Below, piece by piece: positions 1 through 34,112 of a DNA stretch of 34,112 nucleotides. The DNA lies in contig CAYZQX010000002.1 in assembly GCA_964480615.1 (NCBI GenBank), positions 1-34,112 on the forward strand, read 5' to 3'. The notes beneath the pieces are model-generated. The model ran no database searches and was not told the DNA's origin. It saw nothing but the letters and a program-made list of their open reading frames with translations. The first letter of the stretch is position 1; each line of letters starts with the position of its first letter. This stretch comes from an uncultured Chitinophagales bacterium. Its GTDB lineage: Bacteria > Bacteroidota > Bacteroidia > Chitinophagales > UBA2359. The translations under genes and the position numbers were made by a program.

Positions 1-18
1 TCTAGTGTCCAGTTAAAG
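1..18 (+). repeat. Family-2 repeat fragment fused to the 3' end of family-1 copy A, truncated by the window start
   Basis: TCTAGTGTCCAGTTAAAGCG matches the TCTAGTGTCCA and GTTAAAGCGAT modules of 18557-18590. It runs straight into CGATAGGGATAG, the complement of the copy A 3' box. Confidence 0.7.
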
Positions 19-178
19 CGATAGGGATAGCAGTGGATATCCTTTTAGGAGGCTATCGAATAGTATGACCTACTAATAGTTGTTAGAAGCTTAGTTGTAA
101 GTAAAAAACTAAATAATTATAGTGCTCAAGCCTCCTAAAAGATAGGAACGTATAGCCCAGGCCTGTAAGGCATCGCCA
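19..178 (-). repeat. Family-1 mosaic GC-rich element, copy A
   Basis: Read on the minus strand: TGGCGATGCC-TTACA-GGCC-TGGGCTATAC ... CACTGCTATCCCTATCG. It contains a perfect 12-bp stem (42-53 pairs with 130-141) around a 76-nt loop. It lies 89 nt downstream of the lptD stop, on the same strand. Confidence 0.9.
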
Positions 179-7481: not shown

Positions 7482-7626
7482 TGGCGATGCCTGCGGCCCG
7501 GGCTATGCGGGGCTACGCTAGCGCTTCGGTACTGAATTGGCAGGCTGCTTACATTCATATACACCCACAGTATCAGCAGCGGTTTCCAGCCTGCCAATTC
7601 AGTACAAACCCCTCCTATCCCTATCG
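7482..7626 (+). repeat. Family-1 mosaic GC-rich element, copy B
   Basis: TGGCGATGCCTGCGGCCCGGGCTATGCGGGGCTACGCTAGCGCTTCG, then a perfect 19-bp stem (7529-7547 pairs with 7587-7605, 39-nt loop), then AAACCCCTCCTATCCCTATCG. It lies 191 nt downstream of the OstA-like gene stop, on the same strand. Confidence 0.9.
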
Positions 7627-7793
7627 TGGTGAGCACGGAATTAAATGCAAATATTACCACATAATCAAAACATAATGCTAGGATGTATAATAAAAAACTA
7701 CTATTTTTGTATCTACATTGATAATGAGATCGAGCTAAGTGGCTCTTGATTTTTTAATAATAAGTCAGTGTTTTTGAATGTCCAGTTTCAATG

Positions 7794-7905
7794 CGAAAGG
7801 GATAGTAGTGGTTAAGTCAGTAGCGCAGCGGATGACCGAGGCGATAGCCGAGCCACGAATAGCCCGACCCTCCTAGTGCGCATAAGCACTAGGAGGGATT
7901 CGCCC
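7794..7905 (-). repeat. Family-1 mosaic GC-rich element, copy F (variant with long 5' hairpin)
   Basis: Read on the minus strand: GGGCGAATCC, a 12-bp GC-rich stem (7868-7879 pairs with 7886-7897, 6-nt loop), GTCGGGCTATTC, a GTGG...CCAC-closed module, then TACTATCCCTTTCG. It converges on copy B. Confidence 0.85.
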
Positions 7906-12018: not shown

Positions 12019-12051
12019 TAAAAAAGCCGCTTTTAGAACTAAAAGCGGCTT
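12019..12051 (-). terminator. Rho-independent terminator after the Cys-rich protein gene
   Basis: An 11-bp stem AAGCCGCTTTT/AAAAGCGGCTT (12024-12034 pairs with 12041-12051, 6-nt loop). On the minus strand it is followed by a T-rich run (TTTTTATTAATAAAAAAA). It lies 25 nt after the stop at 12076. Confidence 0.75.
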
Positions 12052-18243: not shown

Positions 18244-18323
18244 TCAAAGAACAACAAATAAGTCCGATTAAGCTTCCTTGCTTGTAACTAGGGTTTGCTA
18301 AATAACTCATAAGATTGCAATTA

Positions 18324-18456
18324 TGGCGATGCCTGCGGCCCGGGCTATGCGGGGCTACGCTAGCGCTTCGGTACTGGGGTGGCGGGCTTTCTGCATAATT
18401 GAATCAAAAAAATTGAAAGCCCGCCACCCCAGCACAAACCCCTCTTATCCCTATCG
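18324..18456 (+). repeat. Family-1 mosaic GC-rich element, copy C
   Basis: The first 52 nt are identical to copy B. A perfect 18-bp stem of different sequence follows (18374-18391 pairs with 18415-18432, 23-nt loop), then ACAAACCCCTCTTATCCCTATCG. It lies 81 nt downstream of the M42 peptidase stop, on the same strand. Confidence 0.9.
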
Positions 18457-18465
18457 CGTTTAACG

Positions 18466-18527
18466 ATGTACGATTCACGATAGGCTATCGCGATTTATGA
18501 TTCACGATTTTAGATTTACGATACTGA
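18466..18527. repeat. Degenerate tandem heptamer tract, about 9 units of ATTYACG
   Basis: ATGTACG ATTCACG ATAGGCT ATCGCG ATTTATG ATTCACG ATTTTAG ATTTACG ATACTGA, read directly and starting 10 nt after the 3' box of copy C. Confidence 0.75.
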
Positions 18528-18550
18528 AGCTGGTTGCAGTAACTAGTTAA

Positions 18551-18612
18551 AAAGTCTAGTGTCCATTATCCAGTGTCTAGTTAAAGCGATTTACGATAAT
18601 ACAATAGGATTA
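18551..18612 (+). repeat. Family-2 repeat (AAGTCTAGTGTCCATTATCCAGTGTCTAGTTAAAGCGATTTACGATAATACAAT...)
   Basis: About 90% identical to the reverse complement of 34041-34112, apart from one exact 7-nt indel (AGTCTAG). It has internal 7-nt periodicity (GTGTCCA/TTATCCA/GTGTCTA). Weaker copies lie at 18666-18696 and 18814-18838. Confidence 0.85.
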
Positions 18613-19091
18613 TCAATATTGGAGTTTTATCATAAAAATATTTATGACCGCAGATATGACTTATCAAAGTCTAGCGTCCACGATCTAGTAGCTAAGATCT
18701 ATTTATGAAGAATCTGACTCCTTCAGTATTTGATTACTGTTGTATTAATTGCACTGCAATATTACCGCATCTTCGGCTTGAATATATTAATTTAAACTGG
18801 CTATTAATATACTAAGTCTAGTGTCAATTATCATTGTGCGAAATTCAGTTTTAAGGATTATTACAAAAGCATTTTGAATAGAATCCGTTATAGATTTCTA
18901 TTAATGAAATACAAAATATTATTTACCTCCCCCTCCACGAAAATTGTTCTAATAATTTATAAAATGTTTTGCCTTCAGCACTCAATAGATAGTATATACA
19001 AACATATTTCAATATGTATTGTCAACCATAAGCTTCCTTAGGAACAAAAATTATACATTTTTACCAATATTTTACTAATCAAAAAGGTATA

Positions 19092-20288
19092 TTAATTTTT
19101 TTGGAAGATAAAAATATATTCGTGCTTAAATACATAAAATCCCCCTGACAGGGCCCTGTAGCGCCAGAGTTCTTTTTGGTTGAGTTTTGCCTTGGTATCT
19201 TCAAAATTTTTAATGATGGTTGACTTTAGCTTGTAGCCTCTTTTAGTAAACTCTTGCATGGTGAAAAACGCTAAAGGTATCCATTCTCCTTGCTCATATT
19301 TATCACTGATGATCAATGCACAAAATCGATCTTTGTCTAACACCTTATATACATTTTCAGCAAGTTTGCCCATCTTCTGTAGAAAGGATTCCAGGTCAAT
19401 GGCATTAGATAAGTCTGAGGGCTCTTCACTAAATTTTATAATATCCCAATAAGGCGGATGTAGTATGGCCAGTTGGATTGATTTAATACCTTGTTCTTGT
19501 AGCGCATTAGGCATATTAATCTCGGTACAATCGCCATTAATGATATGCGTTCTGGTTTGGTAGGAAGAAACAGTCTTACTAATAAGCGCATTCGCATGGT
19601 CGGCTATATGGGGCAATAGCTCTATACCTATTACATTGCGTCCTAATTTTTTTGCTTCTATTAAAGTTGTGCCACTGCCTGCAAATGTGTCTAAGACCCA
19701 TTCATCCGTCTTGGTGTATCTTCTGATTAGTTGATTGGGAATTTGTGGTATAAAATTGCCCCAGTACCCAGCATTGTGTACACCACTATTATCGCGCTTT
19801 TCTATTACCCATAGACTATCGGTAAGAATATCCTCATAATCTTTCCACCTATTGAGATTAATATCGTTGTATTTAGTGGTTCTTTCGACGGTGAGTGCTT
19901 TGATAAGCCGCTGGATATAGTATTTTGTTCGTTCTAATGTTTTGGTTTCACTTATCTGTATGAGTTCTTTGATTATATATTGTATGTCTTCTTGATTTAA
20001 GTATTCAGCGTATTGTATATCTTTTGTCTTTGAGGATTTTTTTTGGGTGTTTTTTTTTGTCTCACTTTTGGTTGAAATACTATTAAGTATGGACTTTATG
20101 CCTAGCTGTATTTTGTCCTGTTGTTCTAATATCAACAATGATTCTAATGCACTAGTGATGCGGTTATAAGGGCTAGTATTGTGTTGTTTTTCATTTTCGT
20201 CGATAGGTTGATTGATCATATATGGGATCCTTATAATGGTTATTTGTCCTTGAGTATAACTGATAATTAATAGCTCTTGGAGCTTCAA
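19092..20288 (-). CDS. SAM-dependent DNA (N6-adenine or N4-cytosine) methyltransferase, orphan, with ~160-aa N-terminal extension
   Basis: GNFIPQIPNQLIRRYTKTDEWVLDTFAGSGTTLIEAKKLGRNVIGIEL (SAM-binding motif I, as in N6_N4 MTases) is followed ~70 aa later by ILHPPYWDII (a (D/S/N)PPY-type motif IV). The TTG start at 20288 sits 24 nt after a TAGATTTG -7 box; the alternative is ATG 20219. No restriction-enzyme-sized ORF lies on either side. Confidence 0.8.
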   Translation of the reverse strand: MKLQELLIISYTQGQITIIRIPYMINQPIDENEKQHNTSPYNRITSALESLLILEQQDKIQLGIKSILNSISTKSETKKNTQKKSSKTKDIQYAEYLNQEDIQYIIKELIQISETKTLERTKYYIQRLIKALTVERTTKYNDINLNRWKDYEDILTDSLWVIEKRDNSGVHNAGYWGNFIPQIPNQLIRRYTKTDEWVLDTFAGSGTTLIEAKKLGRNVIGIELLPHIADHANALISKTVSSYQTRTHIINGDCTEINMPNALQEQGIKSIQLAILHPPYWDIIKFSEEPSDLSNAIDLESFLQKMGKLAENVYKVLDKDRFCALIISDKYEQGEWIPLAFFTMQEFTKRGYKLKSTIIKNFEDTKAKLNQKELWRYRALSGGFYVFKHEYIFIFQKN

Positions 20289-20357: not shown

Positions 20358-20472
20358 GACAAGGGATCGCAGCGAGCACGCAATGGAGCGCAGCGCAATG
20401 AAGTAAAGCGGAGAGCCCGGCCCTGAGCGGAGTTTGGCGACCTAAGAAGCCAAAATCCGCTCAGGGTGGCCC
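20358..20472 (-). repeat. Family-1-related element, copy G (divergent)
   Basis: Read on the minus strand: GGGGCCA, an 11-bp stem (20421-20431 pairs with 20456-20466) enclosing a 6-bp inner stem (20433-20438 pairs with 20449-20454), GCCGGGCTCTCC, GCGCTGCGCT-type box shared with copy F, then GCGATCCCTTGTCC. It lies 134 nt downstream of the stop at 20606, on the same strand. Confidence 0.7.
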
Positions 20473-20605
20473 CAAATAATTGTATTGATCATCTAAATCA
20501 GTTTCCAAGTTAATTTTCGTATAGCAAAAAAAAGACATCAGCGATTGCCAATGTCTTCTTAAGAACAGAATAAATAATCTTGTGTGTGATTTTTATCTCA
20601 AAGAA

Positions 20606-25809: not shown

Positions 25810-25992
25810 TGGCGATGCCTCCGGCCCGGGCTATACAGGGCTTTCTGATTTTATTAGTTTTTTAAAGGACATCAGAATCTTCGCAAGCTCGATTTGCTGA
25901 CGCTCCGGTACTGATCTGGCAGGCTTTCGGAAATATTATTTCAAAGCGTTGAAAGCCTGCCAGTTCAGTACAAACCCTTCCTATCCCTATCG
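25810..25992 (+). repeat. Family-1 mosaic GC-rich element, copy D
   Basis: TGGCGATGCCTCCGGCCCGGGCTATACAGGGC, then an inserted module with a 7-bp stem (25843-25849 pairs with 25871-25877). A 21-bp stem with one T:T mismatch follows (25908-25928 pairs with 25951-25971), then AAACCCTTCCTATCCCTATCG. It lies 145 nt downstream of the PNGase F-like gene stop, on the same strand. Confidence 0.9.
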
Positions 25993-26576
25993 TTTAAAAC
26001 TAGGTTTGTAATATTATCTAACTTTTCATTAAGACTTTATAATGAGACGCTAATTTATATAGCGAGTATTTTATAATTCTGGCTATTATTAGTAATGGCA
26101 TTTTTTTATTAATGGTTAATTTGATTTCTTTGTAATCAGAAAATCAGTTAATAAATTGAGTTTTTGCTTTCATAGGGATATTAGCATTTATCATATCAAG
26201 CGAATATAGCGAACATAAAACATACATTAATCGTAATTTTTTTTATTAGAAATAGCAAGAATCTATAACTATAACAATGAAACATTGTCAGTTGAATATC
26301 TAAATTTTAGTAACAATAAATATTGCTTTGCTACTTGAAATGAAAAGATGATATATAATTAGGGTATATCTGTAACCATTGGGTGGATAGAGTTATATAT
26401 ACATTAGTCAGAAATTGTACTGCGGATAGAAGAAATACGACCTCTAACTGAAGATTCCTCTTCCATCAAGAAAATACTATTTGGCGTTATCTCCGTACCC
26501 TCCCATAGATTTGTTGCTAGGGCTGAAACTGTAAAATTGAATTGTTTAAATTTTTTTTAACAAATTTTGCGAGAAT

Positions 26577-31089: not shown

Positions 31090-31203
31090 GGCTAGGTTTT
31101 AAGAACAGCATAATAAAAAATATTTTTATAATTGCCAATCATAATTGTATCTTCTTAAACAAGTTAATTAGGGCTTGTTTAATAACTCGTAATTAATCAA
31201 TTT

Positions 31204-31445
31204 TGGCGATGCCTAAAGACCTATGTTACTTGCAACTTTATTTTTGCTATAGGTAGCAATAACCTGCACTATCGCTTGGTTTTACGCTATACCCTCGCTA
31301 CTTGCTGGAAGGTATATTTTCTATGAGAAGCAAATACCTGCGCATAGCTTGGTTTCTCGCTGTTGGAGTGCATTGGAATTTTCTATTTTTCTTAGTGGCA
31401 ACAAGAATCTATGCTTACGCTTGATTTGCTGCAATCCCTATCACG
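31204..31445 (+). repeat. Family-1 mosaic element, copy E (expanded, internally triplicated, degenerate 3' box)
   Basis: It starts with TGGCGATGCC and ends with GCAATCCCTATCACG. The interior holds three ~63-67-nt related units (31226-31288, 31298-31361, 31366-31432), each ending in a CTTGGTTT(T/C)(A/T)CGCT-like box. It lies 115 nt downstream of the TolC gene stop, on the same strand. Confidence 0.75.
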
Positions 31446-34040: not shown

Positions 34041-34112
34041 GTAATCCTAATTGTATTATCGTAAATCGCTCTAACTAGACTCTAGACACTAGATAATGGA
34101 CACTAGACTTTA
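34041..34112 (-). repeat. Family-2 repeat, inverted copy, truncated by the window end
   Basis: The reverse complement reads TAAAGTCTAGTGTCCATTATCTAGTGTCTAGAGTCTAGTTAGAGCGATTTACGATAATACAATTAGGATTAC. Related fragments lie at 33910-33920 and 33948-33990. Confidence 0.85.

Follow-up and report, generated by a model that had tools for sequence, protein, structure and literature searches.

The window analysed here, by which we mean the whole stretch of 34,112 nucleotides, has a G+C content of 35.7% and a gene content that is ordinary Bacteroidota housekeeping. Its 24 genes include lptD, an amidase gene, MlaD, an OstA-like gene, MbnP, thioredoxin-family genes, pyrimidine genes and an M42 peptidase gene, together with a DNA methyltransferase gene, an ECF sigma factor, a PNGase F-like T9SS protein, an ABC/HlyD/TolC operon, ribF and an Rrf2 regulator. 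As would be expected of a Bacteroidota host for the repeat described below, the window encodes T9SS sorting domains and LptD_2. The best homologues of the M42 peptidase, with 55–59% identity, are found in MAGs of Saprospiraceae and Chitinophagales, and the window sequence itself is present in activated-sludge and wastewater metagenomes. We describe the host as an uncultured activated-sludge bacterium that is Chitinophagales/Saprospiraceae-like. No transposase was found among the 24 window genes (34 kb of genome), and neither an integrase nor a tRNA or tmRNA was found in the window.

The spacers between these genes hold a structured repeat. In what follows, the reading orientation is the strand that an earlier, sequence-only reading of this DNA had called sense; it is complementary to the strand on which Rfam annotates the Flavo-1 family. 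The whole element is enclosed by a closing stem, P1, of 5–6 bp (GGCGAU/AUCGCC). Inside it lie an optional hairpin of variable length, P2, and the Flavo-1 arm, P3. The sequence of P3 is GGGCUAU...CUAUCCC when taken in the reading orientation; on the Rfam strand it is GGGAUAG-N-AGCGG...AGCGGAUAGCCC. P3 bears a hairpin of 10 to >150 nt as well as conserved purine-rich internal loops.

Seven copies, A to G, had been proposed. They were scored with a covariance model, R1, which was built from 39 relatives, and they are also recovered by box searches, both exact and near-exact. Copy A (17..178; minus strand in the reading orientation, plus strand in the Rfam orientation; 44.5 bits) lies 88 nt past the stop codon of lptD, which was identified by Pfam; it is the window copy nearest to classical Flavo-1 and has a long variable hairpin in P3. 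Copy B (7482..7628, plus strand, 45.9 bits) lies 190 nt past the stop of the OstA-like gene and belongs to a subfamily, formed by B, C and D, with a 21-bp P3 hairpin and compensated base pairs. It is faced by copy F (7792..7905, minus strand, 51 bits), whose 5′ end in the reading orientation is 2 nt short of the ATG of the MbnP-like gene (7908), so that in the Rfam orientation copy F is sense to that gene and within its leader. Copy C (18324..18458, plus strand, 48 bits), the copy at the position that the sequence-only reading addressed, is supported by both fold and covariation; it lies 80 nt past the stop of the M42 peptidase gene, in the convergent spacer between this gene and that of the DNA methyltransferase. 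Copy G (20362..20480, minus strand) is divergent: R1 matches it partially, over 20362–20431 and model positions 7–67, with 32 bits. It sits 73 nt upstream of the methyltransferase start codon. Copy D (25810..25994, plus strand, 39.7 bits) carries an extra insert within P3 and lies 144 nt past the stop of the PNGase F-like T9SS gene. Finally, copy E (31204..31443, plus strand), 114 nt past the stop of the TolC-like gene, is matched marginally over 31204–31276 (13.7 bits, E = 0.06). Of its boxes, the 5′ one is kept and the 3′ one is weak, GGGCTAT is absent and the interior looks internally repeated; copy E is a degenerate relative.

Of the repeat as proposed, copies A, B, C, D and F are thus clear (about 40–51 bits), G being a partial and E a degenerate member. 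The distances from stop codon to 5′ box that had been given for A, B, C, D and E prove right within 1 nt, ours being in each case 1 nt shorter.

Family identity and structure

These elements belong to Flavo-1 (Rfam RF01705), a family of structured repeats in the intergenic DNA of Bacteroidota; the window elements are a divergent, extended and expanded variant of this known family, not a new element. The 2010 description of Flavo-1 saw in it a likely RNA that is not cis-regulatory and assigned it no function (PMC2864571); the family is one of the most abundant ‘sRNA’ families in Rfam (PMC9029176). An Rfam scan of the window at gathering thresholds returned nothing. Copy A matches RF01705 on the plus strand with 38.3 bits (E = 7e-5), which is below the gathering score of 42, and one relative close to copy A (L098) scores 43.3 bits against that same threshold of 42. 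At E <= 10, RF01705 gave no match to the other window copies, including B, C, D, F and G. In the window, Flavo-1 is thus represented by members that are divergent or fall below the threshold, and it is R1 that ties all of them to the family. Self-cleaving ribozyme and riboswitch classes (twister, pistol, hatchet, hammerhead, fluoride and ZTP) were dropped because Flavo-1 was the sole matching Rfam family.

The published Flavo-1 alignment has the same core, GGGAUAG..AGCGG...AGCGGAUAGCCC (PMC2864571). Within our set, this core, with GGG/CCC, UA/UA and GC/GC pairs placed round a variable hairpin, is found in copies A and F and in the 39 aligned relatives. Copies B, C and D keep GGGAUAG and AUAGCCC and have AGCGG replaced by GGGG/CCCC pairing. 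The most conserved letters are three direct GATAG repeats and two AGCGG repeats.

The comparison shows that the Rfam motif is just the P3 arm of a larger closed structure: the closing stem P1 and the optional P2 are found in the window copies and in about 50 relatives, and both are outside the 76-position Rfam model. Pairing is borne out by compensatory changes: copies B, C and D show 6 compensated pairs, the Flavobacteriia copies show 8, and at the GC/GC pair positions 3 and 6 sequences have both sides altered. Furthermore, P1 of copy F reads GCGAA/UUCGC in place of GCGAU/AUCGC, so that both sides have changed and the pair is compensated. The invariance of P1 and of the GGG/CCC pairs in the alignment arises because the sequences were chosen on them. 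The Flavo-1 structure of the elements has the support of covariation.

The word ‘sense’, as used for the copies before, presumes a strand, and on this point the earlier description has to be revised: the Rfam model and our strand tests alike put the structure on the opposite strand. Indeed, Rfam annotates Flavo-1 opposite to the strand that had been called sense. The minimum free energy was lower in the Rfam orientation for 37 of 46 elements. G.U-compatible positions were counted in clean ungapped hairpins, since the count in MFE folds is not robust, and they favoured the Rfam strand over the reading strand by 11:2 and 5:2 in two sets; the pooled asymmetry is 16:4, with a p of about 0.012 for sets that are partly non-independent. 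In addition, the symmetric GNA/GGA internal loops, which lie round the GC and UA pairs, could form purine–purine pairs on the Rfam strand only. Free energy, wobble positions and loops together suggest that structural selection acts, in most window copies, on the strand antisense to the upstream gene. This asymmetry is the main evidence that argues against a simple 3′-UTR reading of the elements.

The distribution of the element was followed with its boxes. The 25-nt 5′ box occurs unaltered in Mucilaginibacter genomes, and a box-to-box pattern search found the element in Saprospiraceae, Aquimarina, Flavobacterium, Nonlabens, Prevotella/Bacteroidales and a few Alphaproteobacteria MAGs. A first degenerate genome scan and one viral scan yielded almost entirely chance matches in GC-rich DNA, and in the second genome scan many matches came from sulfatase genes of Latescibacterota and were no elements; these were rejected. 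New with respect to the known family are the extension by P1 and P2, the burst in copy number, the occurrence on phages and, on phage contigs, the locked orientation behind stop codons.

As a separate observation, the copies in Alphaproteobacteria are well conserved, measure 77–80 nt (L028, L063, L082, L090 and L162) and come from high-GC MAGs of Rhodospirillales and Paracoccaceae. They fall outside the reported Flavo-1 taxa, which are Bacteroidetes and a few Spirochaetes.

Copy burst and neighbouring repeats

The element is dense in this genome. The window holds about 1 copy per 5 kb (6–7 in 34 kb), against 2 in 570 kb around the M42 homologues of the nearest available relatives, and the family is expanded about 50-fold in the host lineage. 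In sludge metagenomes, contig depth is about 1000x over 18277–18357, which covers the 5′ part of copy C and the module joined to it, as compared with about 5x over the flanking genes. Furthermore, copies B and C share 94% identity over 65 nt, and their flanks are unrelated. Density, depth and the identity between B and C indicate that the family has recently multiplied in the lineage, or at least in the community. No target-site duplication was found in the flanks of A to F, and no empty site was found in the genome data.

The spacers are mosaics, in which the Flavo-1 element is accompanied by at least three other repeat modules. One of these, TAACTAGGGTTTGCTAAATAACT... / (T)AACTAGGGTTTGCTAAATAACT, is a direct repeat family, termed D5, that lies at 18285..18323 on the plus strand and is joined to the 5′ side of copy C in the reading orientation. 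Related D5-type modules lie at 31165–31203 before copy E, at about 179–225 on the minus strand before copy A, and in a stretch at about 26000–26016 after copy D. As the module stands before C, E and A yet after D, it is no part of the Flavo-1 element. Depth is highest, at about 1000x, over (T)AACTAGGGTTTGCTAAATAACT and the 5′ box.

Behind copy C (18459–18650), a degenerate heptamer run (TACGATT, CACGATT, TATGATT) is followed by a GTCTAGTGTCC/CCAGTGTCTAGTTAAAGCGAT module. The latter recurs inverted at 34050–34111, at the right end of the window, and at 1–16, just behind copy A. The depth of 150–260x in the heptamer/GTCTAGTGTCC region, as opposed to about 5x over genes, points to further high-copy repeat families.

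Placement on chromosomes and phages

In the window, six of the seven copies follow a gene on the same strand, as had been noticed before, the exception being copy F, which faces copy B. The chance probability of about 0.06 that accompanied this count holds as a one-sided value (P(>=6/7) = 0.0625); the two-sided value is 0.125, which is weak alone. Moreover, copy C lies in a convergent spacer and the far side of copy A runs off the window, for which reason five co-directional copies are informative, and these split 4:1 (p = 0.375). None of the three divergent spacers of the window holds an element.

The accompanying claim that these gene ends lack canonical terminators is wrong in the case of copy G. 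A terminator scan found a canonical terminator-like hairpin of 14 bp with a T-run at 20529..20560 (minus strand); it separates copy G from the stop of the beta-barrel gene (20606), and copy G is downstream of it. The terminator that had been cited as the one case of its kind was confirmed by the same scan (12024..12051, minus strand), and no element adjoins it. Copies B and D are followed by weak terminator-like sites, which are no more frequent than chance would give. The scan flags no element as such, and the 3′ flanks of the elements are without a T-run. Terminators behind M42 orthologues in relatives follow no clear pattern, and the Bacteroidota −7 box (TAnnTTTG) has no consistent position on either side of the window copies.

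Outside the window, 38 independent chromosomal copies of other Bacteroidota were placed relative to their neighbours, using simple ORF calls and merging copies with sequence-sharing flanks as one locus. Seven are co-directional and sense, 11 co-directional and antisense, 7 convergent and 13 divergent, from which it follows that there is no family-wide orientation or 3′-end rule. The window (6/7) differs from these copies (14/38) with a Fisher p of 0.034, for a comparison made post hoc. The context count agrees with the transcriptome of Flavobacterium psychrophilum, where Flavo-1 matches lie in sense or antisense indistinctly and many are outside transcribed regions (PMC9723704). The three Mucilaginibacter copies lie between divergent genes. 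Several conserved copies stand upstream of genes in the Rfam sense, among them one before an S46 peptidase gene in Flavobacterium (L130, L134, L139, L159, L161 and L169), and the arrangement of copy F before the MbnP-like gene matches these loci. In four Aquimarina and several Flavobacterium species, same-locus copies with shared flanks have kept both position and hairpins via compensatory changes.

The picture on phage and mobile-element contigs is far more regular. All 16 of the 16 copies confirmed by covariance model on IMG/VR contigs are in the reading orientation, 0–104 nt (mostly 0–18) past a co-oriented stop codon. Often they begin at the stop codon itself, TAA or TGA being followed directly by TGGCGAT, and a terminator-like hairpin follows several of them. 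After allowing for related contigs, these copies represent at least 8 independent phage positions (p <= 0.008). A group of Bacteroidales loci in the genome collection has the same layout, with the element 14–44 nt past a P-loop gene that resembles a large terminase. Among homologues of this terminase-like gene, the element is present at 3 of 80 viral loci, and we take this to mean that it is sporadically acquired or lost. In two related phage loci (L331 and L332), the element stands exactly where a sister locus (L333) has a 7-bp hairpin followed by TTTTT, and the alignment resumes immediately after it. At one phage locus, contigs from RNA libraries (unstranded Logan) join gene and element, at low depth and without direction.

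Separately, in one run, contigs from an RNA library connect two direct copies that lie on one phage contig (L251:2155-3211) across about 950 nt, skipping the intervening gene. This joint may reflect a deletion variant or another copy elsewhere, and one of its sides rests on 21–24 letters.

Possible function and rival explanations

The sequence-only reading had taken the placement behind stop codons as a sign of transcription into 3′ UTRs and of a role at mRNA 3′ ends. This interpretation finds partial support, for a subset of the family. The phage copies (16/16), the exchange of element and terminator between L331/L332 and L333, and the excess in the window over the 14/38 elsewhere speak for it; the 38 unbiased chromosomal copies, the F. 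psychrophilum data, the terminator before copy G and the 16:4 wobble asymmetry speak against it. A 3′-end function of the elements is plausible but unproven.

Taken as a whole, the data are in our view best explained, with a probability of roughly 0.45, by a REP/MITE-like Flavo-1 repeat that in its young copies is transcribed as the tail of an mRNA and serves there as a 3′-end structure. In the host the family behaves like a repeat of REP/BIME or MITE type, the copies of which gather in the spacers behind genes and are absent from the short, promoter-bearing divergent spacers. Young copies, such as those of this genome and of the phages, would lie in one fixed direction behind a stop codon and would then most likely be transcribed as the tail of the upstream mRNA. 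Their stacked helices would most likely form a 3′-end structure, being either a barrier to 3′-exonucleases or a site that assists processing or termination; the element might in this way stand in for a terminator, though it is not of the hairpin plus U-tract type. Spread combined with toleration behind genes fits the data, as it does for REP-type repeats, most of which follow coding regions and have unidirectional or convergent genes on their two sides (PMC3733652). The 3′-tail model leaves the wobble asymmetry and the Rfam-sense leader copies unexplained, and three rivals are for this reason kept alive.

Several known systems invite comparison. Flavo-1 as published (RF01705; PMC2864571) is alike in its conserved core round a variable hairpin, its Bacteroidota host, its many copies per genome and in that no function has been assigned to it. 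The window copies, however, add P1/P2 and are far denser, five of them (B, C, D, F and G) are beyond the reach of RF01705, and relatives occur in Alphaproteobacteria and on phages. REP/BIME sequences are likewise high-copy structured spacer repeats that lie behind coding regions in mosaics with other modules, and the roles hypothesized for them include mRNA stabilization and transcription termination (PMC3733652). Unlike a REP, which is a single imperfect palindrome of 20–40 nt with an unpaired GTAG or CGTC tag, the elements here are 55–185 nt long, have up to three helices and conserved internal loops, and carry no such tag at their foot. In REP/BIME systems a RAYT (Y1 transposase) gene is flanked by the repeats; among the 24 genes of the window, a 34-kb part of the genome, no RAYT-type transposase is found.

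ERIC, Correia/NEMIS and other MITEs resemble the elements in length (100–200 nt), in a short terminal inverted repeat and in insertion into transcribed spacers. MITEs are defined by terminal inverted repeats with a target-site duplication; our elements are without such a duplication, have a terminal repeat of just 5–6 bp (P1) and are hypervariable inside. ERIC and Correia elements influence mRNA processing in an orientation-dependent way. Intrinsic terminators, too, lie directly behind stop codons, and in one phage pair a terminator occupies the same site as the element. Yet a GC-rich hairpin followed by a U-tract is not what the element offers: no U-tract comes after it, and a T-run precedes many chromosomal copies in the reading orientation.

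Of the alternatives, the one that survives best is that of a selfish, non-autonomous mobile repeat with no host role, the structure of which is the ssDNA or RNA recognition form for an enzyme encoded elsewhere. Placement at gene ends would then be tolerated insertion, and the orientation lock would reflect strand-specific insertion or selection against one orientation. We regard this as unlikely, albeit a serious possibility. It accounts well for the 50-fold lineage-specific burst with its roughly 200-fold excess depth, for near-identical copies in unrelated flanks, for the mosaic with other repeat modules and for the lack of orientation preference in other chromosomal copies; the patchy occurrence in close phage relatives (3/80, and L333 without the element) and the spread across phyla (Alphaproteobacteria MAGs) and onto phages agree with it as well. 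It accounts less well for the same-locus copies of Aquimarina and Flavobacterium, the compensatory changes of which point to lasting purifying selection on structure, and neither a transposase, nor a terminal duplication, nor an empty site was found in the host genome data.

A bolder form of the preferred 3′-tail reading would make the element an orientation-dependent 3′-end module of Bacteroidota and their phages, which is independent of a U-tract and replaces intrinsic terminators, be it through factor-dependent termination or through 3′-end protection or processing, and which is mobile, carried by phages and prone to bursts to hundreds of copies. In this full extent we hold the proposal to be doubtful.

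Improbable, in our judgement, is a site that works at the level of double- or single-stranded DNA, for example as an attC-like recombination site or cassette boundary, in replication priming or as a protein-binding signal, with GATAG and AGCGG as the binding motifs. The direct repeats of GATAG (three) and AGCGG (two) are indeed the most conserved letters; two phage contigs (L251 and L257) carry gene–element–gene–element arrays, in which elements start at the stop codon as attC sites do; and the contig joint of one run links two elements over about 950 nt. The joint, however, rests on 21–24 repeat letters and may stem from other copies. The elements end in GGCGAT...ATCGCC and lack the attC core sites (RYYYAAC/GTTRRRY), no integrase is nearby in the window, and the compensatory changes show that pairing matters beyond sequence.

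The weakest candidate, that of independent sRNA genes on the Rfam strand, antisense to and converging on the upstream genes of the window, would suit the Rfam orientation and type (Gene; sRNA), the purine-rich GNA/GGA loops that are possible on that strand only, the lower free energy (37/46) and the wobble ratio (16:4), but we give it very little credence given that no −7 box (TAnnTTTG) is consistently placed beside the window copies, that all 16 phage copies would be antisense with terminator-like hairpins between any promoter and the RNA, that a trans-acting sRNA would not usually have hundreds of copies whose arms are hypervariable, and that matches in F. psychrophilum are often outside transcribed regions (PMC9723704).

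Flavo-1 has been without an assigned function or a context rule since 2010. The larger closed structure with P1 and P2, the bursts of a mobile-like kind and the orientation lock on phages make its function directly testable, and if the element is indeed a 3′-end module, it would add a piece to mRNA 3′-end formation in Bacteroidota.

Several minor observations concern the surroundings of the element. In the window, the lone N6/N4 DNA methyltransferase gene (19092–20288) is bracketed by the facing copies C and G and by other repeat modules, and DNA methyltransferase genes also often follow the phage copies. Between the window enzyme and the phage methyltransferases that follow elements there is no specific kinship, the SAM-binding motif being all they have in common. 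In L331, L332 and L333, the element or terminator site is immediately followed by a shared block in which about 100 nt are conserved, with GCCCGAAAT ... ATTTCGGGC as its boundaries; this block may form a further structured element. On L251 and L257, several copies of the element have behind them a second conserved hairpin module, ..CCTCGGCACCACCTTCCCGGTGGATCCGAGG... Finally, P-loop proteins of 480–580 aa with GRGxSKT ... LFGDE motifs (L175:1730-3409, L176:4164-5618, L273:3753-5504, L269:6144-7781 and relatives) form a large family, with more than 500 relatives in IMG/VR. This family has no Pfam match, and a PHROGs search with four members gave a single weak match, to a terminase large subunit (E = 4.5e-10); these proteins are probably large terminases, of a divergent kind, from Bacteroidales phages.
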